The notes under the pieces: model-generated | What the model was told of the DNA's origin: nothing | Databases searched by the model: none | The model's input: only the letters and a program-made list of their open reading frames with translations | Made by a program: the position numbers and the translations under genes | Origin: Candidatus Dojkabacteria bacterium | GTDB taxonomy: Bacteria > Patescibacteriota > Dojkabacteria > B142 > OLB20 | Direction of reading: 5' to 3' | NCBI GenBank assembly: GCA_035444565.1 | Contig: DAOMOX010000005.1 | Location: 5,045-69,044, forward strand | Length of the DNA: 64,000 nucleotides | In this document: piece after piece, positions 3,906 to 41,594 of the stretch | Layout of the letters: every line of letters begins with the position of its first letter | How positions within the stretch are numbered: the stretch's first letter is position 1

Positions 3906-5318
3906 TTGGCAAAGCATAAATTATTACTATCTTGTGCCATGACGCGAAGTAAAAAGGCAATAAATAAATTAATATCATCTCAGAACTATTTATTAATTAT
4001 TCAGCGTATGCGAAGACACTTACTACTCCTCTTCTCTTTATTAATGCTAAGTGCAATTTTCTTTACATTCTTTCAACACATTACTACAAGTGCACAAACT
4101 ATTTCCACACCACAATTTAAACTGGAAATTACTACTGAGAACAAGGATTTAATTTCACCAGCGGCAAAGAACTCGATTTTGGATACTTTAAACAATCGTT
4201 GGCGTGGTGATATTCCCCTCGATAATATTTTCTATCTCCCAAATATCAGATGGGAGAATGATTGGGCTATAGCGGACATTCACTACAAGAAAAGTAGTAT
4301 CGACTATACAAATCCTGAGAACTCCCCAATCAATAATTCCTTCTCGGTTATCCTAGCTATAAACTCCAGAGGTGTTTGGCAATCTGCATTTACCGACGAA
4401 CCACAGGCAGCAGACATAGCGAGAATGATTCCTGACGAAGAGCTATCCTACGAGGCTAAAACAACTCTTCTCACTCATTTTCCCAGTCAGTACAAAACTA
4501 TGTCTTTAAATATTGATTATAAATTACCGTGGTCGAAATCTGGAACGAAATTTTTCTTTTCAGGAGTCAGAACAACAAACACTCAACCATGTCCAAATAA
4601 CTCAGGTTGGCATGGAGCACTGCCATATTTAGGTGGTGAGCCTTGTCATGCACTTGATTTCGCCCCCAGGCTCAGTTCTACAGTGACGAATGCAGACATT
4701 CTCTCTCCCGTTACAGGTTATGTTTATCAAATCTGTAAAAATCCAGGATCGCAAAAACAATCCGCCCTTGCAATCAAAGCTACGAATAGTAACCAAATTA
4801 TAGGAATCTGGCATCTTGATAAAGAAACAATTCCCTCACGAATCAAACAGGGTGAACTAATAAAACAAGGCGAATTTCTCGGTCAAATGGTCGAAGGATC
4901 TGTGAACGAATCAAAATCAACATGTCCCCTAGTCTCTCAGGGAACTCATATTCATCTTGTATCACCATATAGACCGTTTACTATTGATTCTTATACTTTT
5001 ACCCTTGAAGACAAAGTAATATTTAACGAGTCTGAACATACTATGAGTGCTTTCCAAAACACAGATATGGTAAGTACTAATGGGAACGAGACGTCTACTA
5101 GTTCAAACTGTAGACCACCGGTATCAGGAGATTGGGTGATTTCAGAGAATTGTGATTTGTCTTTCTCTACCTCAGTACCCAATAATATAATAATTAACGA
5201 TGGGAAATCGCTAACAATAAACAGCAATGTTACACTTGATATGAATCTAGGATATTATAGAATTCTTATAAAGCCTAACGCTAAATTACTAGTTAACTCC
5301 GGTGCTAAAATCATTTAA
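3906..5318 (+). CDS. Secreted M23-family (LytM-like) metallopeptidase; the true start is probably the ATG at 4008 (MRRHLLLL...)
   Basis: HxxxD motif in 'GEPCHALDFAP' and HxH motif in 'GTHIHLVSP'. A hydrophobic signal or anchor segment 'LLLLFSLLMLSAIFFTF' precedes them. Confidence 0.65.
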   Translation: MAKHKLLLSCAMTRSKKAINKLISSQNYLLIIQRMRRHLLLLFSLLMLSAIFFTFFQHITTSAQTISTPQFKLEITTENKDLISPAAKNSILDTLNNRWRGDIPLDNIFYLPNIRWENDWAIADIHYKKSSIDYTNPENSPINNSFSVILAINSRGVWQSAFTDEPQAADIARMIPDEELSYEAKTTLLTHFPSQYKTMSLNIDYKLPWSKSGTKFFFSGVRTTNTQPCPNNSGWHGALPYLGGEPCHALDFAPRLSSTVTNADILSPVTGYVYQICKNPGSQKQSALAIKATNSNQIIGIWHLDKETIPSRIKQGELIKQGEFLGQMVEGSVNESKSTCPLVSQGTHIHLVSPYRPFTIDSYTFTLEDKVIFNESEHTMSAFQNTDMVSTNGNETSTSSNCRPPVSGDWVISENCDLSFSTSVPNNIIINDGKSLTINSNVTLDMNLGYYRILIKPNAKLLVNSGAKII

Positions 5319-5925
5319 CAAAAAAATTATGAAAAGAATAATCATATTAACTATTGCGACAATCCTCCTTGTATATGCTGGAATGAATGCTCAAGAACTA
5401 ATTCAAAAAGAAAAAACCTCTTCACAAGAGTATGTTATTACGATTACTCCATCACCATCTATTGAAGTTCCCACACTTTCACACACTTTCGTACTTTCTG
5501 AAAATACAAATTCATCGCAGTCCAATCTAACACTAGAAAGTATTGGAAATTATAAAGGGGAAGTTATTAAATCAGAACAAACACCTTCTCAGTGGAAGTT
5601 ATCTCAAAATGACACATTTCTTCAAATTTCAACAAATCCTAGTGACACATCACCCTTTGGGGCTGACTTAGAACCTGATATTACATTATTAAATTCCCGA
5701 CTAACGGCTAATCAAATCTATAGAGTCAAAGTCGATGAAAGTTTCTACTTTTACACAAATAGATACTACAACGATTCATGTGGACAAAGATATTGTTCTA
5801 ATGGTCTTTTAAGCACCGATAGTGGCGAAGACCTGTCAATTTATTGTGTGCTTGGGGAAAGTAGTCCGGACGAACTCAGCTTCTGTGACAATATCGTAGT
5901 AAATCTAAACGATAAAAGTATTTAA
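5302..5925 (+). CDS. Secreted hypothetical protein
   Basis: N-terminal signal peptide 'MKRIIILTIATILLVYAGMNAQ' followed by a Ser/Thr-rich sequence. I recognise no other motifs. Confidence 0.45.
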   Translation: MLKSFNKKIMKRIIILTIATILLVYAGMNAQELIQKEKTSSQEYVITITPSPSIEVPTLSHTFVLSENTNSSQSNLTLESIGNYKGEVIKSEQTPSQWKLSQNDTFLQISTNPSDTSPFGADLEPDITLLNSRLTANQIYRVKVDESFYFYTNRYYNDSCGQRYCSNGLLSTDSGEDLSIYCVLGESSPDELSFCDNIVVNLNDKSI

Positions 5926-6392
5926 CCTGTGCATACATCTGGGAAGAAGAACGTAAACCCAGGGGTTCCGTCAAATTGTTGATAACAATTACTAGTACCA
6001 GAGATCATGGTCGCCATTACTGACGCGATTATCATTCTCGACAAGTAAAAAAGAACAATTCCAATCAACCACCTACCAAAGCGAGTTTTTGCGTCTTCGA
6101 TTTTGTTTGTATCACTCGTAAAGAACGAATAGGCTATGAGAATGAAATACGCCAACCATAGAAAACCACCTAGTGCCCAAGCAATATAGATGAACCTCAC
6201 CAATACAAACTCAAATGTTTGCAGTGTAGGTGGTCTACAATCAGGATTAATACTATCTACGGGACAATCATTTATAAAATCAGTCTGTCCACCTTGTGCA
6301 AGGACTGGCAAAGTACGAAAACCTAGTAAAGTTAAAGTTAAAAACAATGACAAAATTGTGCTTAAAATATATTTCTTCACAAAGCTTTTCAT
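5922..6392 (-). CDS. Paralog family member P1: secreted protein with the TM - 'TSDTNKIEDAK' loop - TM module and Cys-containing flanks
   Basis: Signal peptide ending '...LPVLAQ'. Two hydrophobic helices flank 'FFTSDTNKIEDAKTRFG', the same module as P2-P7. Cys-containing N- and C-terminal segments surround it. Confidence 0.6.
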   Translation of the reverse strand: MKSFVKKYILSTILSLFLTLTLLGFRTLPVLAQGGQTDFINDCPVDSINPDCRPPTLQTFEFVLVRFIYIAWALGGFLWLAYFILIAYSFFTSDTNKIEDAKTRFGRWLIGIVLFYLSRMIIASVMATMISGTSNCYQQFDGTPGFTFFFPDVCTG

Positions 6393-6497
6393 AACTAACT
6401 CAGTTTATCTCACGTGCAAACGAAAAACAACCTCGATGTATTAATAAAAAAAGAGTTACTAGATAGTAACTCTTTTTCTAATTTATTATGAAAGCAA

Positions 6498-7127
6498 TTA
6501 TGGAGAAGGATCAATAATTGTTGGATCAGTTCCCAACGGTGTACCTCCATTTAATGGATCTTTACAATCTGCACTCACTTGATCTTCAGTATATGTACCA
6601 GCTGCAAATAATGCATAATGTTCATTACACCATTCACACGCATTTCCTTCGACTCCTTCAGTAATACATATATTACAACCTACACTGTTAGGAGCACTTA
6701 AACAGACTTGGGTTAATGTTGGATCTACTCTTCCTGCTCCAAAGAATACGAATACCAATACAACCCCGACTATTCCTATTAACATCGCTGCTATTCCCAT
6801 AAATATAGCTTTGATTGCTTTCTGTGCTTCTTCAATTTTACCAGGGTCCCCTTGTGATTGGATGTATTTAAATGCTGCGATTAACGCATAGACTACTGCT
6901 ACAAGAATTATTAATCCAAGTGCTATGTACAATCCTGTTCGTACCCTACCTGAGATAAATGATGCTGTTCCTGAACCATCTTCTCCAAACAAATCGAAAA
7001 TTGCTTGTATTTGTTCTGGAATAAGGCTGGAGCTTGATGTTTGTGCGGACACGCCACTTGGTAAAAGCAAGATGGTGGAGAATACGCCCACAAATGCAAT
7101 CATTAATCTGCTTATATGAATTCTCAT
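6498..7127 (-). CDS. Paralog family member P2: signal peptide, TM - 'QGDPGKIEEAQKAIKAIF' - TM, then a Cys-rich C-terminal tail
   Basis: Signal peptide ending 'GVSAQ'. The N-terminal 150 aa are near-identical to P3 (7213..7782). The C-terminal tail holds nine Cys. Confidence 0.65.
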   Translation of the reverse strand: MRIHISRLMIAFVGVFSTILLLPSGVSAQTSSSSLIPEQIQAIFDLFGEDGSGTASFISGRVRTGLYIALGLIILVAVVYALIAAFKYIQSQGDPGKIEEAQKAIKAIFMGIAAMLIGIVGVVLVFVFFGAGRVDPTLTQVCLSAPNSVGCNICITEGVEGNACEWCNEHYALFAAGTYTEDQVSADCKDPLNGGTPLGTDPTIIDPSP

Positions 7128-7212
7128 GATTTGTTTTAAATAAATAAAATAATATATAAAATATTAATACATTAAGCTGATAAATTAAATTGTTATCACT
7201 TACTGTAAATAA

Positions 7213-7782
7213 TTATTGACATAAGTTATTATATTGGATTTGCTCCCCAGGATCCAAAGCTCCACCCCTTGCAATCTCTGAATACAGACCTTCACAAGTT
7301 CTGCAATCACCACCATTAATACCCTCTGCTCTACAGCTATCACAACCGACACTATTTGGTGCACTTAGACAGGTTTGGTAAAGATTTGGTTCAACTGGAC
7401 TAGTTCCAAAGAATACGAACACAAGAATCACTCCAACAATGGCAATCATCATAGCTGCGATACCCATAAAGATTGCCTTGATGGCTTTTTGGGCTTCCTC
7501 GATTTTTCCTGGATCACCTTGTGATTGGATATATTTAAAAGATGCTAGTAAAGCATAGATTACGGCAACTACAATAATCACTCCTAAAGCTATGAACAAT
7601 CCTACCCTCACCCTACTGACAATGAATGAAGCAGTACCAGATCCATCTGGTCCTAAGAGATTGAACAGACTTAAAATTTGATCTGGTAAAAAAGAGGGAT
7701 TAGTCTGAGCACTTACTCCGACCGAAAGTAGTACTAATATAAGTGGAGTCAGTAAAAGACTTGATAATACTTGTTTTTTCAT
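7213..7782 (-). CDS. Paralog family member P3, a tandem duplicate of P2
   Basis: It shares with P2 the sequence 'GSGTASFI.SRVR.GL.IALG.II.VAV.YAL.A.FKYIQSQGDPGKIEEAQKAIKAIFMGIAAM' nearly residue for residue. Its Cys-rich tail is different. Confidence 0.65.
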   Translation of the reverse strand: MKKQVLSSLLLTPLILVLLSVGVSAQTNPSFLPDQILSLFNLLGPDGSGTASFIVSRVRVGLFIALGVIIVVAVIYALLASFKYIQSQGDPGKIEEAQKAIKAIFMGIAAMMIAIVGVILVFVFFGTSPVEPNLYQTCLSAPNSVGCDSCRAEGINGGDCRTCEGLYSEIARGGALDPGEQIQYNNLCQ

Positions 7783-7850
7783 AATTTATTTATTAAAGAT
7801 AACAAATTTTAAACTAATTTAAATTAAATAGCAAAACAATTACAGCAACA

Positions 7851-8588
7851 TTATTCACATCGGAAACTGTTAGGATTATTATTCACACTACCTGTACAAG
7901 TTAGTCCTGCACAACATGACCCAACCGGATTCCCGTTATTATTACATAACTGACCACTCGATAAACATACATTTGAGACGTTACTGTTTCCGTGTGTGCT
8001 GTTCAGTGCACATCCACTTGGCATTGCACTTTGAAATTCAATGATATCGATATACTCCGTATCGCCATCTTCACAACAGACTACATAATATTGAGGCCTG
8101 GTTGATCCTGCAGACTCAATGTAATCGTCTAGCAGCTCAATATAAGATTTTCTAATCGCTTTCGAAGGATCATTGGGATCGGGTTCAAACTTGCCTTGGA
8201 AATAAAACCTCCCAGAGGCAGGACCACCTTGATTGCATTGCCTTAAGTTCTCAGCCCAATTCCAAGGTGCACCAACTCCCATAAATACAGCAGCAAAAGT
8301 AATCACTAAGAAAAACATTAGGAAATACGATATTCCGATCCATACACTTTTGATAATTTTCCATCCTTTCTCAATCTTCTGTGGATCTCCAAAACTAGAT
8401 GTAATACTAAATGCTCCATATATAGCAAATCCTAGCCATGCGACTACAAGAATTACCAAGAATAAGAACATCAATAAACCAATAGCCGAAAAAATACCAT
8501 TCGTAAAAAAGCCCCCATAAGATGGTAAATCAAAAACAAATTCAGTGCCTGGAATAGAGAATTGACTTGATATTGAGCTAAAATCCAT
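7851..8588 (-). CDS. Paralog family member P4: TM - 'FGDPQKIEKGWKIIKS' - TM with a long Cys-rich C-terminal domain
   Basis: The module sits near the N-terminus and no cleavable signal peptide is obvious. The C-terminal 150 aa hold about 14 Cys ('CCEDGD', 'SCCAGLTCTG'). Confidence 0.6.
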   Translation of the reverse strand: MDFSSISSQFSIPGTEFVFDLPSYGGFFTNGIFSAIGLLMFLFLVILVVAWLGFAIYGAFSITSSFGDPQKIEKGWKIIKSVWIGISYFLMFFLVITFAAVFMGVGAPWNWAENLRQCNQGGPASGRFYFQGKFEPDPNDPSKAIRKSYIELLDDYIESAGSTRPQYYVVCCEDGDTEYIDIIEFQSAMPSGCALNSTHGNSNVSNVCLSSGQLCNNNGNPVGSCCAGLTCTGSVNNNPNSFRCE

Positions 8589-8629
8589 ATTATTAATTTT
8601 TCAATATAATTACTAAATAACAGACTTTA

Positions 8630-9349
8630 TTACATACATTTCTTAAAACCTGCCACAGGATCAAGTACGCAGGAATCTTGTGCGTCAGCACAAACCGTAT
8701 AACCACCACAATTACCACCCCTAGGAACGACCCTTGGCTGTGGCACAATACTTATATCAAATAAACTTCCCGTCAGTCCCAATAATAATGATACTAATTG
8801 TATAATACCAACAAATGAGAGACTCAATATCACACCTACAACAGCATTTCTGAAAATTTTCACTGCCTTTTCGATTTTTTCTGGGTTATCTGCGGCCGTA
8901 GATCTTTCCCACACACCCCACATTCCCATAATAACAGTGGCAAATACTATTAAGCTTATCATGGCGTAGAACCCCAGTCGCACTAGGATAACTGTACAAT
9001 ACGGATCGTCGGCTGGTCTATCTATCGTTTCTGGATCTGGGCATAATTCTAATCCAAATATATTAAATGCTTCACTATATCTCCCAGGAATATCGTCGTA
9101 CATAATTTCAAAGGATAGATTATGACAATTGACTTGGTCTGACTCGAGACAATTTAATCCCTGGTCTACACAAGCTTTATTACACAGCGAACTACATACA
9201 ATCGGATCTTCTGGAAATCTTGTTGCGAGATATTTTGAACATTCCGGATCGATTACCAATTCTACATTAGCTCCTTGCGCATTAACATTAAATCCCTGAA
9301 TAAAGGTAACGATTAAGATTCCAAATATTAAAAATAGTAATTTCTTCAT
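8630..9349 (-). CDS. Paralog family member P5: signal peptide, Cys-rich N-domain, TM - 'ADNPEKIEKAVKIF' - TM, short Cys tail
   Basis: Signal peptide ending 'VNAQ'. About 12 Cys in the N-domain. The module is conserved. Confidence 0.6.
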   Translation of the reverse strand: MKKLLFLIFGILIVTFIQGFNVNAQGANVELVIDPECSKYLATRFPEDPIVCSSLCNKACVDQGLNCLESDQVNCHNLSFEIMYDDIPGRYSEAFNIFGLELCPDPETIDRPADDPYCTVILVRLGFYAMISLIVFATVIMGMWGVWERSTAADNPEKIEKAVKIFRNAVVGVILSLSFVGIIQLVSLLLGLTGSLFDISIVPQPRVVPRGGNCGGYTVCADAQDSCVLDPVAGFKKCM

Positions 9350-9705
9350 GAAGGATTGGTGATTAATAAATCAATGCCAAAAATTGCTCCGATTGTCGCA
9401 ATTATCAATGGTGCCAGCATAATTAATGCAAAACCAGTAGTGGAATAACCTATTATTAAAATAGCCTTTTTCGCTTTTTCTGGATCGGCACCTGCGGTCA
9501 GCCTGATATATCCAGCATAAAGAAGCATCGCTAAATAAAGCAATACTGCGACAGGACGTATCCACCGAGAAATGGTACTGATAGAAGTTGCAAAATCCTT
9601 AAATGCATCGCTGACGGGATTTATTAAGCCTACAGCCTGAATATTACTAGGAAAAATAATAAACAACGCTGAAATAAGAATTAATACTAAAAATGCTTTT
9701 TTCAT
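9346..9705 (-). CDS. Paralog family member P6: minimal 119-aa form (signal peptide + TM - 'GADPEKAKKAIL' - TM) with VirB2/TrbC-pilin-like topology
   Basis: Signal peptide 'MKKAFLVLILISALFIIFPSNIQA', then two hydrophobic helices separated by a short charged loop. It overlaps P5's start by 4 nt. Confidence 0.6.
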   Translation of the reverse strand: MKKAFLVLILISALFIIFPSNIQAVGLINPVSDAFKDFATSISTISRWIRPVAVLLYLAMLLYAGYIRLTAGADPEKAKKAILIIGYSTTGFALIMLAPLIIATIGAIFGIDLLITNPS

Positions 9706-9709
9706 TTAT

Positions 9710-10858
9710 TTATCCTAAGAAATTAATTGGCAATAACTGTAATAGATTGATACCTAAGAACCTCAGTAACGGGATGGTAACTGCTAATGTAATCAACGCC
9801 CAAATAGATGAAGTAATCATATCTTTGCCTTCCTGGATTTTTGCGGGATCGGTACTTTGTCTCAAAATTGACCCCCACATTATTCTCAACACTCCAAAGC
9901 CCCCTAACATACCGAAACCTATTTGAAAAAGTCTTGTAATGAATTCATTTTGCCTTGTATCAACACATCCGATAGAACTATAAACATAAGCTTTGGGTGC
10001 ATTTGGATCATTGGGATCGATGTTCTTCATAAAGCAGTCTAGACAGTTTTGTCTTTCACCTAAATCAAGAATTTCACTACATGAGGTGATGTCAGGATTA
10101 ATTGCAATCAATGTTAGGACAACAGGATCTTCAGCTTTCTGATAAGCACAGAATTTGCCAGAAAGCGAAACCCCATCCTGGAAAGAGCCTTTTAACGGAC
10201 TACCAACCGCAAGACATTTATAATCACCTCTTTGTTCCTCTGTAAGTGGTCTATTCGTTGTATTATTCTCTTCTAATAGTTCAGTACCCTCTATCAAACA
10301 AGCATCGGATGGACATGAGAATAATGTTGCGCCAATTTTATAAGGGAAACTAGAGGTTGTAGCTGTCACTTCTCGAGAACTTGTGCTTGGAACAGAATCA
10401 ACTTTGGTGTTATCACTTAACACACATTCGACTCCGATATCCTGTTTTGTCCCAGCTGGACAACACTTAAAACTACGTTGATTAACTGGGATCCCCACTG
10501 GGTATTCCCGAGGACAACATCCACGATCTGTATATCCTGATTCTCCAAGAACAATAGGGATGATTGAACCTGTATCACAAAACTTTACGTACCTCTCGTT
10601 TGCAGTTCCTACTGGATCATCTATTTTCGATATTTGTAAAGATCTATCTAATGTACAAATTCTAAATTCCTTGGCTTCTGTCAGTGATAAACTTATACTG
10701 CCGCTATTAGAATTTCTAAACATGTCCCTAGTAATCTCATACTCACCTACTGCATTATTACAGTAATCGGATTCTACCCAAGCCTGCTGTGCACTTACTC
10801 CCTGAGGAAATACTGCAATTAACAGAAACACCCCTATGATTAATCCTAAGAATTTCAT
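9710..10858 (-). CDS. Paralog family member P7: signal peptide, about 300-aa Cys-rich extracellular domain, TM - 'STDPAKIQEGKDMI' - TM
   Basis: Signal peptide ending 'GVSAQ'. More than 20 Cys in the N-domain and the conserved module at the C-terminus. It starts 3 nt after the ATPase stop. Confidence 0.6.
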   Translation of the reverse strand: MKFLGLIIGVFLLIAVFPQGVSAQQAWVESDYCNNAVGEYEITRDMFRNSNSGSISLSLTEAKEFRICTLDRSLQISKIDDPVGTANERYVKFCDTGSIIPIVLGESGYTDRGCCPREYPVGIPVNQRSFKCCPAGTKQDIGVECVLSDNTKVDSVPSTSSREVTATTSSFPYKIGATLFSCPSDACLIEGTELLEENNTTNRPLTEEQRGDYKCLAVGSPLKGSFQDGVSLSGKFCAYQKAEDPVVLTLIAINPDITSCSEILDLGERQNCLDCFMKNIDPNDPNAPKAYVYSSIGCVDTRQNEFITRLFQIGFGMLGGFGVLRIMWGSILRQSTDPAKIQEGKDMITSSIWALITLAVTIPLLRFLGINLLQLLPINFLG

Positions 10859-10861
10859 AAT

Positions 10862-13438
10862 TTATTTAATTGTATATTTATTTAAACTTTCTATGAATAT
10901 CGTACTTCCACTTTGTAATTTCCTCTCGATTATTAACTGAGCAACTAGATCTTCAATTGTGTCTGTCACCACTCTTCTTAATTCTCTCGCTCCGTATAAA
11001 TTATTGTAACCTAAATTTGCCAACTCTTGTAGCAAGTGTCTACTATATTCAAGTTTTATCCCTTTATCAAACAACCTATCTGCAACTGACTTCATCATTA
11101 AATTGGCTATTTCTTCTACCTCCATTCTAAGCAAAGGCTTGAACATAATCAACTTATCAAATCTATTGAGGAACTCAATCCTCAAGAAATTTCTTAAAGT
11201 TGGCATAATTGCTTCCAGAACTTCACTGTAACGGCGACCTTGAGAAATTAAATCTGCAATTTCTTTCGATGCGACATTAGAAGTTGCAATAATTATCGTA
11301 TTGGTGAAAATTACTTCTCTACCCATTCCATCAGTGATTTTTCCCTCATCCAAAATTTGCAAGAATAAATCAAGTACTCGAGGATTCGCTTTTTCGATTT
11401 CATCAAGTAGAATTAATGCGTATGGTTTTGCTTTTACCGCCTCCGTCAAATACCCTCCCACGAACTCCTCACCTTCTTGCATACCGATTAGTCTTCCTAG
11501 ATTTCTATCTTCTTGGTATTCAGACATATCGAGCCTAATCATCTTCTCTTCATCACCAAAGTATAGTTCAGCGACTGTTTTTGCCAACTCGGTTTTACCA
11601 ACTCCAGTTGGTCCGAAAAATAGGAAACTCGCAACTGGTCTGTTTTTATTGGTAAGACCAGCTCTGGATCTTCGAAGTGCAGCAGCTACCGCGTCCACTG
11701 CCTGATGTTGACCGATAACTCTCTTATGAAGTTCGATTTCGAGTTTATTGAGAAAATCTGATTCTTTCATACTAATACTTCCGATTTCTACACCAACTTT
11801 TCCTGCTACCAATTTATCCACAACCTCTCGGTCAACCACAGTCTTACCTACTGCAAGTGCACGAGAAATCGCTTCTTCTAATAAATTAATAGCTTTATCA
11901 GGTAACACCCTCTCAAAGGCAAACTTGTGTGATAACTCGACAGAACGATCCGCAGCTTCAAAAGCAATTTTGACTTTGTATGTTTTTTCAAGTTCAGGAA
12001 TGAAGTCAAATAGTATTTGAAGTGCAATTTCATCAGTAGGCACCTCCATTTTCATTTTATTAAACAAAGCATCAAGAGCTTTGTATGGTTTTATGTGTCT
12101 AGTGTATCCTTCAACAGAACTAGTTGCTATGATTCTGAGCTTGTGAACATTCATTGCATCAGTAAGTAGATTTATAATCTCTGCACTCAACTCTTTCTTT
12201 ACATTGACCAGCTCATCTAAATCATCAATCACAAGAATAATATTTTTAGCTTTTGCCACTTCTTGGACTATATTTTCGACCGTGGCTTTAAATTGTTGTT
12301 CGTTCTCAGCCAATGCATATGCCCTATTGAAATCAAAACCAACCAAACGCATATCTTGAATTATTTTGGGGACGTCCTCTACCACCATTTTAATTGCGAA
12401 GTTTTTTATAAATGTAGTTTTACCTACTCCTGGTTGCCCCAGTACTAGAGATGCACTTGATTCCCCTGACGTTACCATTGCGATTAAGTTCTTTAGTTCA
12501 TTTTCTCTTGCGTAAGATAATTCGAAATTGCCTTGGACGATTTCCGCGGTGAAATCACGTGAAAATTTAACCAAACTTGGGGAAAACACTGAAGTGTAAG
12601 CGCGATTAACCGTCGAAGTTGGTTTAAGCATGCTTTTTGTTCTGATGATTTGGAGATACCTGGCTCTCTTACTGAGATTCTGCGCCCATAGTCTCATCGC
12701 ATCAACTTCATTCTCGCCTACTTCAAGTTTCAGTAGTTCATTTTTAAGATCGGTTTTGCAAAGATGGATAAATAGAGACAACTCATCTGCCTTCTTGAAT
12801 CCATTCTCTATTGCAATAATAAAACTCTCACGCAAAACCAATGCTAATTTTTCTTCATCGAAATTCACATTATTTACTGTATGAATCAAATTATTTAACG
12901 TCTCAACACTCAATCCTAAGCGAGTACTAGCTGTTTTGACAAGTTCGAGAAAACTCAGCTCTTCTAGAATTTTCTCTAATATGTTACTTCCGTCTTTCCT
13001 TGCAAGAACTTCATCAATTAAATTTATTAAATCTTTATCAAAGTAGTCAGTAATATCTATTTCTGCTGGATTTTCTGCTTTTTCAAATTTAACACGGAGT
13101 CCGTCAAAATCTCTTTGTCCAAACTTGTCCAAAAAGACATTTCTATCTCTAACCAAATAAGCACCATAAGAGATTAATCCGAGCCCCATATAGAGAATTA
13201 ACTTTGCAAACGTGTCTACATAAATAATTTCAGAAAGAATGAATCTTGAATTGAAGTACGCCTCGTAAAGAGCAAAAATACAAATAATTACAACAGTGAA
13301 GAAAATTAATATCCACCCAATAATAAATTCGATTTTCTGGAGTTCTTTCCTCAGCCCAAACTCTTTCGATAAATAACCGAAGTTAATTTTTAATTTTGTT
13401 TTTCTATACTCACCAAGTGAGTTGATACGTTTAAGCAT
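10862..13438 (-). CDS. Membrane-anchored Hsp100/Clp-family double-AAA+ ATPase (ClpB/ClpC-like D1 + D2) with a two-TM N-terminal region replacing Clp_N; no ClpP-docking loop
   Basis: D1 Walker A 'GQPGVGKTT' and Walker B 'ILVIDDLDEL'. D2 has 'GPTGVGKTELAKT', 'ILLDEIEKANPRVLDLFLQILDEGKITDGMGREV', sensor 'IIIATSN', 'EFLNRFDKLIMFKPL' and 'GARELRRVV'. N-terminal TMs are 'IIGWILIFFTVVIICIFALY' and 'LILYMGLGLISYGAYLV'. There is no long coiled-coil M-domain and no IGF/IGL loop. Confidence 0.8.
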   Translation of the reverse strand: MLKRINSLGEYRKTKLKINFGYLSKEFGLRKELQKIEFIIGWILIFFTVVIICIFALYEAYFNSRFILSEIIYVDTFAKLILYMGLGLISYGAYLVRDRNVFLDKFGQRDFDGLRVKFEKAENPAEIDITDYFDKDLINLIDEVLARKDGSNILEKILEELSFLELVKTASTRLGLSVETLNNLIHTVNNVNFDEEKLALVLRESFIIAIENGFKKADELSLFIHLCKTDLKNELLKLEVGENEVDAMRLWAQNLSKRARYLQIIRTKSMLKPTSTVNRAYTSVFSPSLVKFSRDFTAEIVQGNFELSYARENELKNLIAMVTSGESSASLVLGQPGVGKTTFIKNFAIKMVVEDVPKIIQDMRLVGFDFNRAYALAENEQQFKATVENIVQEVAKAKNIILVIDDLDELVNVKKELSAEIINLLTDAMNVHKLRIIATSSVEGYTRHIKPYKALDALFNKMKMEVPTDEIALQILFDFIPELEKTYKVKIAFEAADRSVELSHKFAFERVLPDKAINLLEEAISRALAVGKTVVDREVVDKLVAGKVGVEIGSISMKESDFLNKLEIELHKRVIGQHQAVDAVAAALRRSRAGLTNKNRPVASFLFFGPTGVGKTELAKTVAELYFGDEEKMIRLDMSEYQEDRNLGRLIGMQEGEEFVGGYLTEAVKAKPYALILLDEIEKANPRVLDLFLQILDEGKITDGMGREVIFTNTIIIATSNVASKEIADLISQGRRYSEVLEAIMPTLRNFLRIEFLNRFDKLIMFKPLLRMEVEEIANLMMKSVADRLFDKGIKLEYSRHLLQELANLGYNNLYGARELRRVVTDTIEDLVAQLIIERKLQSGSTIFIESLNKYTIK

Positions 13439-13766
13439 TCAGTAAAAAAGATGCGAATCCGTAAATCGGAATCACAGGTAAAATCAGATAAATTATGAAA
13501 ATTATCAAAATGATAGGAAGAAGAAGTAATTCAATAAATAACCCCATCAAAACCCATGTCAAACGTATAGGAAAAGCAATAATACGACCCATCCTGGTGT
13601 AGTCCTGATAAAGTGGCTGAAATAGATTTTTAAGCATCGGTGGGACATTCAACAAATTCATCAAGAACATCCATCCACCAAAAACTTTACCCAAGATAAT
13701 CTTGGATTGGACAAGGTACCACCAAATAAAATAATTTAGAAAATATCGATTTAGTAAATTGAGCAT
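13431..13766 (-). CDS. Small polytopic membrane protein, first gene of the ATPase / paralog operon
   Basis: 111 aa with three or four hydrophobic segments. Its stop overlaps the ATPase start by 8 nt, which indicates translational coupling. Confidence 0.45.
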   Translation of the reverse strand: MLNLLNRYFLNYFIWWYLVQSKIILGKVFGGWMFLMNLLNVPPMLKNLFQPLYQDYTRMGRIIAFPIRLTWVLMGLFIELLLLPIILIIFIIYLILPVIPIYGFASFLLNA

Positions 13767-13842
13767 TTTTAGAGTTATTTCTCTAATTGTAGTTGAATTT
13801 GGTTACTCTATCAATGAAAAATCTAAACTACTATTTATAACA

Positions 13843-13873
13843 AAAAAGATCCCGCACTAAATGCGGGATCTAA
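13843..13873 (-). terminator. Rho-independent terminator of the groESL operon
   Basis: Perfect inverted repeat gatcccgca / tgcgggatc with a 5-nt loop, followed on the minus strand by a T-run. It lies just downstream of the groEL stop at 13897. Confidence 0.7.
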
Positions 13874-13896
13874 TATTCTCAGTTCGTAGGATACAA

Positions 13897-15835
<1,939 letters not shown>

Positions 15836-15877
15836 ATGATTATTGGATTAATAAATAATTTAATTAGTTGAGAGAAA

Positions 15878-15904
15878 TTAGCACTCTCGGACTTTGTGTG
15901 ATAA
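15878..15904. promoter_or_regulatory. CIRCE-like inverted repeat (candidate HrcA operator) upstream of groES
   Basis: TTAGCACTC-N9-GTGTGATAA against the consensus TTAGCACTC-N9-GAGTGCTAA. The left arm is perfect and the right arm has 2 mismatches. It lies in the groES 5' region. Confidence 0.45.
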
Positions 15905-15979
15905 GTGTGAAATTTTATGATAAATTTGTCACCTGTGTCAAGGCGACCAATCGAACTACTTATCCTGCAAGTGATTATA

Positions 15980-17848
15980 TCATTTGAAAATGATATTTTC
16001 TCTTTTAGAAGGAATTTTTCTCAAATTCTCAGGGATGTAGTCAGGTTTGTATGTGATATTGACTTTCTCAATCTGTTCTAGTTCTTCTAGATATTTTTTC
16101 GCCTCATCAATAGTTTTTCCTGAAATTTGATCTTTTTGTTCTTCTAGTTGAAGGTTTTCATTTACCTCACCTTTTGCTACTAATTCAAAGGTGATTTTTG
16201 TTCCCTCCACTTTCACATTTTTTACTTCAAAATCGTCGACTTTGATTTCGGCTTGATCGGTAGCTTTCTCACTTTTCTTGATGATTTCTTCTGCCATAGA
16301 TTTGATATCCTCTTCCTGCAACTTCACAGCGGTGACTTTCATCTTCAGGTCCACCGAGAAATTCTCTGCTTCTTCATCATTCTGAACAGTTTGTTCAAGA
16401 CTGACTTGCTCATACTTCTGTGAACCTTCAAGTAAAATCTCACCTTTAGACAACTGCGATTTTAGATTTGTTTGAAGATTGCCTTTTATTGCAGTTTCGA
16501 GACCCTGTTTAACTTTTGCAACATCATCTGCTGTTACGACGGTAATTTCTTCTGTTTTGCCTCCCGTAATATCTCTGAAACCGAAACCAATAAGTTGATC
16601 CGTAGTAAAACCCTGGATACGGAATGTTGCAGGTTCAGTTATATTATAGTTGTCTCCAAAGCCTTTAGCTTGTACTGGAATATCTTTCTCGTAAGAATCA
16701 ATTGCAATTGTAGTGTTCTCAATTAACTCATACTCTAGATTTGTTGAAATGTCTATTACGATCTGGCCCTTCGCGAGATTAACTGCCGATTCTTCGCTTT
16801 TGTTTCTCATCTCAATGATACCTTTAGCGTACTCTCCTGTTTCTTTTTTACCTGTCGCAACACCATCTCCAGAGGAAGATTCCTCCAGTCCAAGTTCAGT
16901 TCCAGGAATAATCAAATTTTCACTATCAATCTCAGTCGCAAGAGTGGAAACAGTAATCATTTCATTTATATTACCTTCGGATTGGTTGAACTCTACTTCA
17001 ATCTCAACCTTGGCCATATTTTTGTAACTATATGCAAATGCACCGCCAAAGAGCAATAGTAGTAATAGTAAAGCTAAACCGACAATTATAAGCAGTTTTT
17101 TAATATTTCTTTTTTTCTTGGGACCACTTTCTTTTAACCTTCGTGTTGCAACATTTGCAGATTGTTTCTCTTCTGTAGGTTTTTCTGGCTCAGCAATAAT
17201 TTCAGGTTTTTCGACTTCTGATTCTTTCTCGTCTTTTTTTATCTCAACTCCAGTAACTGGTGTGCTTAAGTCTTTTAATTCATTAATATCACCACCTGAA
17301 GCAATCGCGATACCTCCCAGAGTAACGATTTTCGGACTTAGTCGAGGCTTTTCCCCGAATATCTCTTTTTCCGTATGTTCGATTGGTTTAGTTATCTCTG
17401 GTTCTTTCTGTTCTTCGATTTTTTCGGTAACCTCAGGTTTCACTTCTTCAACATCCTCTGGAACAACCTCCTCCTCGACTACCTCTTCGGGCATTCTAGA
17501 AGTAAGTAATTCTTTTTTAATTCCCTCCTTATGTTCTCTGAGTTCATTCTTTATTGCTAAAGCTTCATCCCAAGCAGATTTATCCACTAGACTAATTTTG
17601 TCACGAACCACTAGATTGGCTTTACCTGCTAATTTTATGCCTGTAGGATTGTCCGTTACCAGGATTAATAATTTATTAGAGTCAATTAATTGTTTAGATA
17701 ACAATTTCAAACTAATAACGCTACTTACCACACCGCTAGTTGCTGGGATTACTAATATCACACGCGATGTTGCTGCACGTAAAATCTTCTCAACGACGAA
17801 TATGATTTCGTCATCCTGATCAACAAATATTTTCTCTATCGTCTGCAT
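15980..17848 (-). CDS. Bitopic membrane protein of unknown function, translationally coupled to ftsA
   Basis: About 250-aa cytoplasmic N-terminus containing an E/K-rich low-complexity linker, a single TM 'LLIIVGLALLLLLLLFGGAFAY' and a roughly 350-aa extracytoplasmic C-terminus. Its start overlaps the ftsA stop by 1 nt. Confidence 0.5.
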   Translation of the reverse strand: MQTIEKIFVDQDDEIIFVVEKILRAATSRVILVIPATSGVVSSVISLKLLSKQLIDSNKLLILVTDNPTGIKLAGKANLVVRDKISLVDKSAWDEALAIKNELREHKEGIKKELLTSRMPEEVVEEEVVPEDVEEVKPEVTEKIEEQKEPEITKPIEHTEKEIFGEKPRLSPKIVTLGGIAIASGGDINELKDLSTPVTGVEIKKDEKESEVEKPEIIAEPEKPTEEKQSANVATRRLKESGPKKKRNIKKLLIIVGLALLLLLLLFGGAFAYSYKNMAKVEIEVEFNQSEGNINEMITVSTLATEIDSENLIIPGTELGLEESSSGDGVATGKKETGEYAKGIIEMRNKSEESAVNLAKGQIVIDISTNLEYELIENTTIAIDSYEKDIPVQAKGFGDNYNITEPATFRIQGFTTDQLIGFGFRDITGGKTEEITVVTADDVAKVKQGLETAIKGNLQTNLKSQLSKGEILLEGSQKYEQVSLEQTVQNDEEAENFSVDLKMKVTAVKLQEEDIKSMAEEIIKKSEKATDQAEIKVDDFEVKNVKVEGTKITFELVAKGEVNENLQLEEQKDQISGKTIDEAKKYLEELEQIEKVNITYKPDYIPENLRKIPSKRENIIFK

Positions 17849-22182: not shown

Positions 22183-23433
22183 TTACGAATAAACACCAAA
22201 ATCCTCAGGAAGATACTGTCTGAAATTTTCGGGAGTTATTTCAAATCGATTACCCTGCCCTTCAACCATTTTCTTTGCGATTTTTCGCACCAGAGTAGTG
22301 ATATTTCTCTCTAACTGTCTAATTCCCGCATCGAAACCTAGAGGGCGAATCAATAATGGCCAGACACTTTCACTGAAGACGATTACATTTGGGTCGATTC
22401 CAGTTGCTTCTATAACTTTTGGAAGTAGATAGTCCTTTGCAATGTGCATTTTTTCTTCATCGGTATAGCTAGACATACGGACAATCTCCAAACGATCAAG
22501 AAGTGCAGCACTAATTCCTCCAAGGTTATTGGCAGTACAAACAAACATCACCTTCGATAAATCAACCGGGTAATCAATATAATGATCTCGGAATGTTGCA
22601 TTTTGTTCTGGATCCAAAATTTCAAGTAAAGTTGCCATTACGTCCGCTCGCACACCACCAAAGTCACTAACTTTGTCAATTTCATCCATTAATATCAGTG
22701 GATTCATCACATCAGTCCTTATGAGAGATTTGACTATTTGTCCTGGTTCGGAATCAATCTCACTACGAGATCTACCTCTCAACTCAGAAACATGAGCTAT
22801 ACCTCCAAGTGAAATCCTCACGAATTGCCGTCCCATCGCAAGTGCGATAGACTTGGCAATAGAAGTTTTACCGATACCTTGCACTCCTACTAAACAAATA
22901 ATAGGTGCATGAGCCGAACTTCCTTCAAGTTTTACCATTTTCTCAATTTGCGTAGGTACTTGCTGGACTTGTTGATTGACAGGCATCGGAGTGGATGTTT
23001 GTGGAATTTGTTGTGGGACTTGATTCATTTGAACTTGTGGGTTATTTGCAACCATTGGAACACCACCACTTTGCTGAAGTCTTTGTAGATGCAAGATTGC
23101 AATATACTCCAAAATTCTCTCTTTTACTTGTTGTAAACCGAAATGAGTTTTATCTAGCTGATTTTTTGCGTTATTAAGGTCAAGATTATCCACTGAATAC
23201 TTTTCCCATGGTATCTGGCAGATCCAAGATACATATTTAGCGATTGGTTCGTATTCTCTAGAAAAATAGCCGTATTTAGCAACTCTACGAAGCCTTGAGA
23301 CCATCGTTTTGGTCTTTTCTAGAAGATCCTTCGGTAATTGTGCCTCTGAAAGCTCCTTCTCTAATTGTAGAATTTCTTCTACTTCTTCCGAAGCTAGATT
23401 GGCTGTATTGTTGGTGAGTTGTTTTTCGTCCAT
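22183..23433 (-). CDS. Lon-like AAA+ ATPase lacking the S16 protease domain
   Basis: 'ICLVGVQGIGKTSIAKSIALAMGRQFVRISLGGIAHVSELRGRSRSEIDSEPGQIVKSL......LILMDEIDKV' matches the Lon ATPase module (Lon has 'LGGVRDEAEIRGHRRTY'). The pre-AAA helix 'IPWEKYSVDNLDLNNAKNQLDKTHFGLQQVKERILEYIAI' is also Lon-like. The ORF ends after the AAA+ alpha-helical lid, and a Q/P-rich insert is present. Confidence 0.7.
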   Translation of the reverse strand: MDEKQLTNNTANLASEEVEEILQLEKELSEAQLPKDLLEKTKTMVSRLRRVAKYGYFSREYEPIAKYVSWICQIPWEKYSVDNLDLNNAKNQLDKTHFGLQQVKERILEYIAILHLQRLQQSGGVPMVANNPQVQMNQVPQQIPQTSTPMPVNQQVQQVPTQIEKMVKLEGSSAHAPIICLVGVQGIGKTSIAKSIALAMGRQFVRISLGGIAHVSELRGRSRSEIDSEPGQIVKSLIRTDVMNPLILMDEIDKVSDFGGVRADVMATLLEILDPEQNATFRDHYIDYPVDLSKVMFVCTANNLGGISAALLDRLEIVRMSSYTDEEKMHIAKDYLLPKVIEATGIDPNVIVFSESVWPLLIRPLGFDAGIRQLERNITTLVRKIAKKMVEGQGNRFEITPENFRQYLPEDFGVYS

Positions 23434-32634: not shown

Positions 32635-33387
32635 CTAGATTAACAAAAAAGAGCTAACAACCATACCTGCAGTTTCTGTCCGCAATACCGGTAAGTTCAG
32701 TTTTACTAATTTGAATCCACTTACTAATGCAGAGGATACTTCTTTTTCAGAGAAGCCTCCTTCTGGACCAATAACTATCAATACTTTATCCTTAATTTTA
32801 ATTTGTTCTTTGATTTCTTTTAGATTTATTGTTGCACCACCTTCAGAGTCAGTATGAAGTAGTAGTTTGTAATCTGCTTCTAAGTTTAACAACTCATTAA
32901 AACTTAATGCTGGTGCAACTTCAGGAATGAAATTGTTTACACTTTGTCTGGAGGCTTCTTGAACCACCTTTCCAAGCCTTTGCATTTTTTTCTCATCATA
33001 ATGTTTGGCTTTTACGACACTATAATCACTCTCGAATAAGACAAATTTTTGAACGCCGACTTCGGTGTTCATTCGTAATATCATGTCAATTTTTCCAGCT
33101 TTTGGGAGTCCCTGAGCCAAGATAATGTGCGGTCTCTCCGGGATTTCTTCAACATTTTTCTCTAGGACTTTCGCAACCAAAACTTCTTTACTTAATAATT
33201 CGACTTCGGAAAGATATGATGTGCCTTCTCCATCAAACAATATTACTTTGTCACCTTTAGATATCCGCAATACTTTTCGGGCATGTTTTAATATCTTCTC
33301 CTCTTTAAGATAATACTTACCTTTTGCATATTCGTATTCGGAAAGAAAAAATCTAGGTAATGATTTCATACAATTATTCTTTAACAA
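32635..33387 (-). CDS. rsmE: 16S rRNA (uracil1498-N3)-methyltransferase RsmE family
   Basis: N-terminal 'LPRFFL' with a PUA-like region and C-terminal 'GPEGGFSEKEV', characteristic of RsmE. Confidence 0.75.
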   Translation of the reverse strand: MLKNNCMKSLPRFFLSEYEYAKGKYYLKEEKILKHARKVLRISKGDKVILFDGEGTSYLSEVELLSKEVLVAKVLEKNVEEIPERPHIILAQGLPKAGKIDMILRMNTEVGVQKFVLFESDYSVVKAKHYDEKKMQRLGKVVQEASRQSVNNFIPEVAPALSFNELLNLEADYKLLLHTDSEGGATINLKEIKEQIKIKDKVLIVIGPEGGFSEKEVSSALVSGFKLVKLNLPVLRTETAGMVVSSFLLI

Positions 33388-34210
33388 CTGATGAATTTAA
33401 AAGGCTTGTCACCATCCTGGCTTCAAAGTGCTGCATATATACTGTCCCAACAGACAAGGCAACCGGCAACAAGAACAACCCCACACATAGTAATATGAAG
33501 AATGCAGACATATAAATCGCAAACATCACAATTGTTTGTGCAAGGAAGATAAGTCCACCCACGATTAGAATTTCTTTGAAATTTGATTTTATGGCATTTA
33601 GAACAGCATTCATATTTATTGTATCTGCAATTCTGCCCTCGTTATTTATAAATCTGGCTGTTAGCAGTGGGAAGAAAAGAAGCCTTGTCAGAAATTGCAA
33701 GAACGTTCCAAGCCATACAACCGCATTTCCTGAAATTAAAAATATCCAGTATTCCGCACTAAGTGGATCTTCGGTAGTTTCCATAAATTGTGATGAGAAA
33801 CTATTTACAAATGATCCAACAAACAGAATAAGTGTGGGAATTAGAATATAAGCTAATTGTGACAGATTCAGTTTAAAACCCTGAGTAATCCTTCTTCCGT
33901 AATCTGCTAGATGTGCAACACTTTCAATCTGCCCATCATGTTGCATTACCTTAACTAAATCTAATTTATAACCTGCCAAATAAAACTGTACAATGAGATG
34001 AGTCACTAGTAAGATTAGTCCAATAACTAAAAATAATAGGAATGCGAATAGTAGGTCACCTAGCATGAGAAATATTGTTAATGCGAATAATGCCATACCC
34101 AAAACGCTGATTATCAAGTACATACCCCCAATTCCCAGACTCCTCTGTTTCCAATCACTAAGTTTGAAGAATTCTGTAAATATTACGTTTGTGTCTATTT
34201 TGACTTTCAT
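33374..34210 (-). CDS. Polytopic membrane protein, hypothetical
   Basis: Multiple hydrophobic segments and no recognised motifs. Confidence 0.4.
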   Translation of the reverse strand: MKVKIDTNVIFTEFFKLSDWKQRSLGIGGMYLIISVLGMALFALTIFLMLGDLLFAFLLFLVIGLILLVTHLIVQFYLAGYKLDLVKVMQHDGQIESVAHLADYGRRITQGFKLNLSQLAYILIPTLILFVGSFVNSFSSQFMETTEDPLSAEYWIFLISGNAVVWLGTFLQFLTRLLFFPLLTARFINNEGRIADTINMNAVLNAIKSNFKEILIVGGLIFLAQTIVMFAIYMSAFFILLCVGLFLLPVALSVGTVYMQHFEARMVTSLLNSSVVKE

Positions 34211-41591: not shown

Positions 41592-41594
41592 TAA

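Follow-up and report, generated by a model that had tools for sequence, protein, structure and literature searches.

A predicted operon of Candidatus Dojkabacteria joins a tandem array of VirB2-like pilin genes to a membrane-anchored Clp-type ATPase

Analysis of a 64,000-nucleotide stretch of the genome of a tiny uncultured bacterium, Candidatus Dojkabacteria (contig DAOMOX010000005.1, positions 5,045 to 69,044; hereafter the window, in whose own numbering all window coordinates below are given) revealed a block of nine consecutive genes, all on the minus strand between positions 5922 and 13766, that appears to constitute an operon of two parts. The first part is a pair of genes widespread in Patescibacteria, which specify a small membrane protein and a membrane-anchored ATPase of the Clp/Hsp100 type; the second is a tandem array of seven genes, P7 to P1, predicted to encode pilins of the VirB2-like T4SS_pilin family, i.e. 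an array of an already known kind. The explanation that we favour, with a probability of roughly 0.5, is that the ATPase acts as a dislocase of membrane proteins and that the pilins are its main clients. The underlying assignments of protein families and domain architectures can be made with high confidence; a direct relationship between the ATPase and the pilins is proposed more tentatively, at even odds at the very best.

The identity of the array rests on a module shared by all seven proteins, which hydropathy and motif scans resolve into two hydrophobic helices around a loop of the DPxKI type (DPAKI, DPEKA, NPEKI, DPQKI, DPGKI, DPGKI and DTNKI from P7 to P1). A hidden Markov model (HMM) of the seven modules, refined by iteration over related loci, matched exactly these seven genes when run against the window, with E-values from 4e-25 to 8e-16, while the next-best open reading frame (ORF) of the window in the un-iterated search had an E-value of 0.006; the observation is far beyond chance. 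The Pfam model PF18895 (T4SS_pilin, VirB2-like; T4SS standing for type IV secretion system) matches at the position of the module in all seven paralogs, most strongly in P6 (36.8 bits, E = 4e-9, the curated cut-off being 26.6 bits). PF18895 is also carried by 15 of the 16 P6 homologues found, including all the named ones, and the NCBIfam model NF045849 (pilin-like conjugal transfer) gives a sub-threshold match in six of the seven paralogs. An ortholog in one related locus (L016) additionally matches TrbC (PF04956). The consensus of the loop, drawn from 81 modules of related loci, is [S/A]-x-G-[D/N]-[P/E]-x-K-[I/L/V]-x-x-[A/G/S]-x-K, with K conserved in 67/81, D/N in 62/81 and I/L/V in 66/81 of them. 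A Foldseek search with the hairpin of the AlphaFold2 model of P6 (helix 2-17, hairpin helices 36-70 and 75-108) returned the conjugation pilus of Aeropyrum pernix (8dfu) as the match of highest probability (0.87; TM-score 0.69), albeit with a weak E-value of 1.7. As judged from these profile matches, the paralogs belong to the VirB2-like T4SS_pilin family.

In the direction of transcription, the operon starts with the gene of the small membrane protein (13431-13766, 111 amino acids), which overlaps by 8 nucleotides with the ATPase gene (10862-13438, 858 amino acids). P7 (9710-10858, 382 amino acids) follows after a gap of 3 nucleotides and is predicted to comprise a signal peptide, an ectodomain of ~280 amino acids with 16 cysteines and a C-terminal module at residues ~305-375. 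After another 4 nucleotides comes P6 (9346-9705, 119 amino acids), a minimal VirB2-like pilin consisting only of a signal peptide and the helical hairpin and devoid of cysteines. P5 (8630-9349, 239 amino acids, 12 cysteines), overlapping P6 by 4 nucleotides, has a signal peptide, an N-terminal cysteine-rich ectodomain, the module at residues ~127-198 and a short cysteine-containing tail. P4 (7851-8588, 245 amino acids, 10 cysteines; 41-nucleotide gap) lacks a signal peptide, and its module (residues ~30-110) is followed by a C-terminal cysteine-rich domain. The same order of module and cysteine-rich domain, here behind a signal peptide, is found in P3 (7213-7782, 189 amino acids; 68-nucleotide gap) and P2 (6498-7127, 209 amino acids; 85-nucleotide gap), each with 6 cysteines; these two proteins are 67% identical, P3 being a recent duplicate of P2. 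The last gene of the array, P1 (5922-6392, 156 amino acids, 4 cysteines; 105-nucleotide gap), encodes a signal peptide, a short cysteine-containing N-terminal segment, the module with the DTNKI loop and a short cysteine-containing tail. Six of the seven paralogs thus carry extra cysteine-rich domains of ~30-280 amino acids, placed before or after the module and hence at either terminus, and every cysteine count is even. P6, which lacks an extra domain, is the candidate major subunit, and P7 together with P1-P5 may represent variable minor or adhesin-bearing subunits. A separate observation concerns P4, whose hairpin region is weakly matched (E = 0.0023) by the Pfam family DUF4013, to which a membrane protein encoded elsewhere in the window (33374-34210, minus strand) belongs; this is most likely due to the hydrophobicity of both proteins.

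An initial annotation of the window, prepared from the sequence without database searches, had described the nine co-directional genes with their tight junctions and the module common to the seven paralogs, and had compared the topology of the latter with that of VirB2/TrbC pilins. All of this is borne out by the ORF list, the module HMM and the Pfam search that the annotation had proposed, which led to PF18895. As to the signal peptide with a recurring ..VSAQ context that it had noted, a signal-like N-terminal helix is present in six of the seven proteins, P4 being the exception, and its ending varies (..SAQ, NAQ, LAQ or QAV). For the paralog array, the suggestion of an undescribed system did not survive comparison with the literature, in which tandem VirB2-like arrays have already been published (PMC12102498; PMC10633639). 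A survey of 3,035 Patescibacteria genomes with the same Pfam model found 441 arrays of 2-11 divergent VirB2-like genes, with an average identity of ~25% (PMC12102498), and an essential pilin series lies inside the T4SS cluster of Southlakia epibionticum (PMC10633639). The array described here resembles those published in family, in the presence of a signal peptide and a helical hairpin, in its seven divergent tandem members (within the published range), in its chromosomal location and in having no relaxase nearby. It differs from them in lying away from virB4, virB6 and virB3, in having a Clp-type ATPase and the small membrane protein encoded in the same operon, and in that most of its members bear cysteine-rich ectodomains. 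The published survey does not mention a link to Clp/AAA+ proteins, the word 'Clp' being absent from its text (PMC12102498).

The absence of T4SS genes from the vicinity had also been pointed out initially, and correctly so: VirB4, VirB6, VirB3 and VirD4 families were not found by Pfam among the scanned window ORFs of >=110 amino acids or within 10 kb in the related loci with gene calls, and no VirB8 gene was found nearby. Partly on this ground, the annotation had considered that the genes may form a novel apparatus. Dojkabacteria are listed among T4SS-bearing lineages in a preprint, where the Dojkabacteria assemblies in a part of Table S1 are scored VirB4 = Yes (PMC12102498), so the pilins may serve a T4SS whose genes lie in another part of the genome, and the lack of T4SS ATPases in the window is no proof of a T4SS-independent apparatus. 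Of the 1,948 VirB4-containing assemblies reported to have VirB2-like pilins, only 1,135 have a pilin near virB4 (PMC12102498).

The second major component of the operon, the ATPase, consists of an N-terminal transmembrane hairpin (hydrophobic helices at residues 32-64 and 71-89), a divergent Clp_N-like domain, a degenerate first AAA+ module (D1), an intact second one (D2) and a D2-small domain. Pfam identifies PF07724 (AAA_2, 7e-51), PF00004 (AAA) in two stretches, PF17871 (AAA_lid_9) and PF10431 (ClpB_D2-small), and ClpB and ClpC structures are matched at ~360 bits (E ~1e-107). PF02861 (Clp_N) has no match in the window protein; hhalign aligned residues 16-332 with the N-termini of relatives from Patescibacteria at 99.9% probability, and since several of these relatives bear a Pfam Clp_N domain, the N-domain appears to be a divergent homologue of theirs. 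Motif conservation was counted over 84 full-length members of the family. In D1 the Walker A motif is kept, the position of the Walker B glutamate is most commonly occupied by D (57 members) or N (22) rather than E, and the pore-loop tyrosine is gone, its position holding N or S. In D2 both Walker motifs are invariant and the pore loop keeps an aromatic residue (F in 78 members, Y in 3). An N-terminal transmembrane segment was recognised in 82 family members. Of the six in which it was not, five are truncated, and the remaining one, P0073 (940 amino acids), carries transmembrane helices further in, at residues 124-183.

Three familiar Hsp100 roles do not fit this protein, whose scores fall well short of every NCBIfam equivalog cut-off. 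A ClpB-type disaggregase was rejected, as the score against TIGR03346 (449 bits) is far below the equivalog cut-off of 1232 bits and the middle domain (M-domain) is absent: the alignment with Escherichia coli ClpB splits into overlapping query pieces (286-572 and 490-850) and leaves ClpB residues ~445-483 unmatched, while ClpA, which has no M-domain, aligns in a single stretch. Partnership with a protease in the manner of ClpC or ClpA was rejected as well, given that the ClpP-docking loop [ILVM]G[FLM] occurs in 0/84 members (the loop is LGF or IGF in the canonical ClpC sequences aligned as controls) and the ClpA equivalog cut-off is missed (TIGR02639, 379 versus 993 bits). ClpV does appear among the sequence relatives of the ATPase, as does HSP101; its role in the type VI secretion system (T6SS) was dismissed on the score for ClpV-TssH (TIGR03345, 380 versus 885 bits), and T6SS families such as the TssB/TssC sheath were not found in the window. 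With these three possibilities removed, the protein is best regarded as a membrane-anchored unfoldase with a single active ring. It shares with ClpB, ClpC, ClpA and ClpV the two AAA+ modules, AAA_lid_9, ClpB_D2-small and apparently a divergent Clp_N-like N-domain, with ClpB and ClpV the lack of a ClpP-docking loop, and with ClpA and ClpV the lack of a long M-domain. It differs from all four in the N-terminal transmembrane hairpin and in a D1 without catalytic glutamate and pore tyrosine, and its context is unlike theirs in that no T6SS genes, ClpP or DnaK-coupling domain are present.

The small protein encoded upstream is a member of a family that has neither a name nor a Pfam model and whose genes, throughout Patescibacteria, immediately precede those of membrane-anchored ClpC-like ATPases. 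At least 548 clusters of homologues exist, none of them with a Pfam model. Its invariant residues are W15, W16, Y17, N47, P51, G60, R68 and P97, and the small proteins are marked by the motif WWY / N-x-F-x-P-x-Y. It had initially been called polytopic; the AlphaFold2 model (predicted local distance difference test score of 94.3; helices 2-38, 41-46, 58-95 and 98-110) fits an amphipathic N-terminal helix followed by a hydrophobic helical hairpin better. The protein adjoins the ATPase in all 11 Dojkabacteria loci with upstream DNA and in 7/8 loci from other Patescibacteria (the outgroup), being found beside it in Falkowbacteria, Parcubacteria and others. The outgroup ATPases are ~895-925 amino acids long, with one or two N-terminal transmembrane helices and a Clp_N domain detectable by Pfam; they, too, have a degenerate D1 and no ClpP loop. 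Many of the Patescibacteria ClpC-like ATPases outside Dojkabacteria (P0089-P0104) start with a zinc-ribbon-like CxxC...CxxC motif before the transmembrane hairpin, a motif that the Dojkabacteria family lacks. Homology identifies the ATPase of the window as the ortholog, in Dojkabacteria, of a ClpC-like ATPase with a membrane anchor that is widespread in Patescibacteria, and the pair predates the link to pilins. As far as could be found, the pair is undescribed; a search of the literature on membrane-anchored Clp or Hsp100 proteins in the candidate phyla radiation yielded nothing relevant, which, its coverage being incomplete, is weak evidence of novelty.

The pairs of other Patescibacteria, e.g. 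those of Falkowbacteria RIFOXYB2_FULL_34_18 and Parcubacteria GCA_002869165.1, are like the window pair in their homologous small protein and ATPase, transmembrane hairpin, N-domain and adjacency, and unlike it in what follows them. In five Falkowbacteria, Parcubacteria and related loci (L014 9604-16294, L015 9623-14142, L017 9001-15973, L018 9001-16362 and L019 9001-17670) the pair is followed by genes for Glycos_transf_4 (MraY/WecA family), VanZ and QueH, along with one or two for T2SSE (PilB/PilT-like) ATPases. This set is a second conserved neighbourhood of the pair and may point to an envelope or pilus-related role there as well. Two further features of these regions, a Cas12a (Cpf1)-Cas4-Cas1-Cas2 cluster upstream of the pair (L014 1-4870) and a bAvd gene with a reverse transcriptase gene, resembling a diversity-generating retroelement, downstream of it (L013 14969-16373), are probably incidental neighbours.

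Within Dojkabacteria the association of the ATPase with pilins is regular. We compared the window with 12 further loci (L001-L011 and L016), whose ATPases range in identity from 96% down to 34%; a scan of a genome collection with a narrow alignment of the N-terminal part of the ATPase gave 8 loci. In all 13 Dojkabacteria loci the ATPase gene is immediately followed, on its own strand, by a pilin array of 5-9 module genes, and no module genes occur elsewhere within 10 kb of it. The recurrence of the linkage, which the initial annotation had proposed to look for, is thereby confirmed. The distance between the ATPase stop codon and the start codon after it is at most 4 nucleotides in 6/12 loci (3 nucleotides in the window), and the genes past the array vary between loci. 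In most loci the array begins with a large protein bearing a C-terminal module, continues with a minimal pilin of ~112-129 amino acids and ends with variable members. The large P7-type protein, usually the first gene after the ATPase, has its equivalent at this position in L001, L002, L004-L011 and L016, and the ectodomains of nine such related proteins contain no adhesin or enzyme domain known to Pfam. Array size differs even between close relatives, 7 genes in the window versus 9 in the 96%-identical locus L004, and four P2/P3-type paralogs (L004 15668-18375) versus two (6498-7782); comparison of the sequences indicates a rapid turnover of copy number between near-identical genomes. The conserved Dojkabacteria operon joining a pilin array to the ATPase looks new.

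Transcription of the operon likely starts at a promoter-like site on the minus strand (TTGATA-17-TACAAT, 13786-13814; a consensus match only, 10/12), 20 nucleotides upstream of the ATG of the small gene. Just outside the operon, 26 nucleotides past the groEL stop codon, a strong intrinsic terminator is predicted on the same strand (13847-13871; an 11-bp stem with 6 GC pairs, followed by a run of T), and the only operator in the window resembling CIRCE (controlling inverted repeat of chaperone expression) lies upstream of groES at 15878-15904. Judged by these consensus matches, groESL looks like a separate transcription unit controlled by HrcA/CIRCE, and the idea of a heat-shock operon running on from groESL into the ATPase genes was rejected. 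The position next to groESL, highlighted at the outset as worthy of note, is therefore real as an adjacency and provides no evidence for a common function. Between P2 and P1, a terminator scan detected a hairpin (6448-6477) formed by a perfect 13-bp palindrome, with A5 and T5 runs at its sides and readable on either strand; it could be a bidirectional attenuator or terminator, in which case the coupling of P1 to the other genes of the operon may be incomplete. Two ORFs of 470 and 207 amino acids on the plus strand (3906-5925), with hydrophobic N-termini and without a Pfam or PHROG family, converge on the array, the second of them overlapping the stop codon of P1 by 4 nucleotides.

We propose the following scenario. 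The pilins would be inserted into the membrane by Sec as helical hairpins, with the lysine-rich [D/N]-P-x-K-[I/L/V] loop in the cytoplasm, as expected from the positive-inside rule, and both termini, including the disulfide-bonded cysteine-rich domains, facing outward; such an orientation would allow cysteine-rich domains at either end and would agree with the even cysteine counts. The ATPase hexamer would hang from the membrane by its N-terminal hairpins, its entry face (the N-domain and D1 side) turned towards the bilayer, and only the D2 ring would hydrolyse ATP and thread substrates. A similar arrangement, in which N-terminal transmembrane anchors set the AAA+ entry face against the membrane, is known from FtsH, Msp1/ATAD1 and Bcs1, and FtsH and Msp1 use this geometry for pulling membrane proteins from the bilayer. 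The comparison is one of functional analogy only, as the Dojkabacteria protein belongs to the two-ring Hsp100 clade, unlike these classic single-ring AAA proteins, and has no protease domain. With the entry face at the bilayer, an active D2 and an inactive D1, a membrane-protein dislocase pulling from the cytoplasmic side is, by this analogy, the most likely role of the ATPase. The hairpin pilins of Dojkabacteria would be its main co-expressed clients, either supplied to a VirB4-type T4SS encoded elsewhere or removed when surplus or mis-inserted. For VirB4 itself, a role in dislocating VirB2 out of the membrane has been put forward.

Several considerations weigh against this scenario or some part of it. 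Six of the seven paralogs reach only 12.7-20.5 bits against PF18895, i.e. below the gathering threshold, and are linked to P6 through the local module HMM (E <= 8e-16); fold searches cannot separate a pilin hairpin from other helical hairpins; and the promoter and terminator are predicted only by their match to a consensus. An entry face at the membrane implies that substrates are pulled into the cytoplasm, which suits quality control better than outward assembly. There is also a more specific variant, in which the Hsp100 protein and its small partner grip the cytoplasmic [D/N]-P-x-K-[I/L/V] loop and extract the VirB2-like hairpins in order to build or retract a pilus or to pass them to a T4SS; we consider such a dedicated dislocase or assembly motor unlikely. 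A further objection comes from the distribution of the pair. The adjacency of the ATPase and pilins is limited to one class-level lineage, and pilins accompany the same pair in 0/8 loci from other Patescibacteria (checked by precomputed Pfam matches to PF18895 in the 8 loci and, in the seven with DNA, by the module HMM, which gave 0 matches among 855 ORFs), where it adjoins Glycos_transf_4, VanZ, QueH, T2SSE or other genes. The function of the ATPase is thus clearly not dependent on neighbouring pilins, and its membrane anchor does not count as an adaptation to pilins. The linkage in Dojkabacteria could then be inherited co-regulation only: the pilins would serve a VirB4/VirB6-type T4SS elsewhere, the pair would be part of housekeeping membrane proteostasis, and the common promoter would reflect co-regulation or inherited synteny. 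The VirB4 scores of the Dojkabacteria assemblies in the part of Table S1 mentioned above, as well as the frequent separation of pilins from virB4, speak for this. We nevertheless find it somewhat unlikely that the two parts are merely co-located, since the block has been kept in 13/13 loci despite ATPase identities down to 34% and rearranged flanks, and since the ATPase and pilin codons are so closely spaced in half of the 12 loci; conserved gene order with tight spacing usually marks, in prokaryotes, proteins that act together.

At the opposite extreme, the ATPase and the small protein might form a self-contained and hitherto undescribed apparatus that extracts, threads or polymerises the hairpins into a pilus or surface layer, independently of VirB4 or in its place. 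There are precedents for Hsp100 proteins as dedicated motors of secretion machines, namely ClpV in the T6SS and HSP101 in the PTEX (Plasmodium translocon of exported proteins). The conserved and tightly spaced operon, the lack of VirB4, VirB6 and VirD4 in the 64-kb window and within 10 kb in the 12 loci, and the need for some other job for an ATPase that neither works with ClpP nor acts as a DnaK-coupled disaggregase would all accord with it. We regard it as quite improbable all the same: the ATPase and its partner occur without pilins in other classes of Patescibacteria, VirB4 is reported for the Dojkabacteria genomes in the part of the published table cited, the operon encodes no channel, VirB6-like or cell-wall-spanning component, and the geometry of the motor favours pulling inwards over export. 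The pilin identity of the array can also be questioned from the functional side, if the module does no more than anchor variable, disulfide-rich ectodomains (adhesins or proteins of host interaction) in the membrane for display on the cell surface, and no filament is formed. A bulky domain on each subunit of a helical pilus is, we infer, hard to picture, and such domains occur in all paralogs except P6; moreover, the differing copy number (7 versus 9 in L004) and the recent duplicates would suit variable surface proteins, and the fold searches are non-specific. Conversely, a domain-free, P6-like subunit that passes PF18895 is conserved across loci, and so is the loop motif in all paralogs, which points to an interaction common to all of them, such as assembly, lipid binding or recognition, and away from mere anchoring. 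A purely anchoring role is accordingly doubtful in our eyes, and the dislocase acting mainly on the pilins is retained as the preferred explanation.

The wider surroundings of the operon are those of an ordinary chromosome with housekeeping flanks. The closest homologues of the ATPase are named Candidatus Dojkabacteria, P6 and the small membrane protein are 100% identical to proteins of Dojkabacteria metagenome-assembled genomes, and contig JAJTYI010000005.1 shows 96% identity across the N-terminal 336 residues of the ATPase. Neighbouring genes recognised by Pfam encode a histidine kinase, polyprenyl synthase, GroES/GroEL, an FtsA-like protein, YidC and L25, and further a phosphoketolase, acetate kinase, a DUF5671 protein and a surface protein of 3266 amino acids. 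There is no sign of an origin from a phage or mobile element: GC content is even along the 64 kb, and neither the small protein nor the paralogs nor the two ORFs converging on the array from downstream had a credible match in PHROGs. No tRNAs were found in the window, and an Rfam scan of 5000-17000 gave no match. The sole Pfam match of the giant 3266-amino-acid ORF (43349-53149, minus strand) is a Laminin_G_3/concanavalin-like lectin domain at residues 1798-1965, and the protein is probably a surface adhesin; just downstream of it lie two ORFs of 585 and 565 amino acids without a Pfam family (39834-43292, minus strand). A protein of 416 amino acids (22183-23433, minus strand) with AAA and Lon_lid domains, in which the Lon protease domain was not detected, may be a Lon-like ATPase without the proteolytic part.

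Patescibacteria, which live attached to host cells, account for a large part of the bacterial diversity that has not been cultured. Should the linkage described here reflect co-regulation only, the locus would be an ordinary member of the known class of pilin arrays. If, on the other hand, a dedicated motor were at work, it would be the first motor of the Clp family serving a conjugation-type pilus. The pilin series of the T4SS is essential in the only lineage tested genetically (PMC10633639), and the operon provides a concrete, testable candidate for the missing pilin-handling step in a monoderm T4SS that normally has no pilus. Beyond pilins, the pair with its dead D1 ring could be a general machine for membrane-protein extraction in bacteria with minimal proteostasis networks, and would, if this is true, represent a new class of bacterial membrane-protein extractase found across Patescibacteria.

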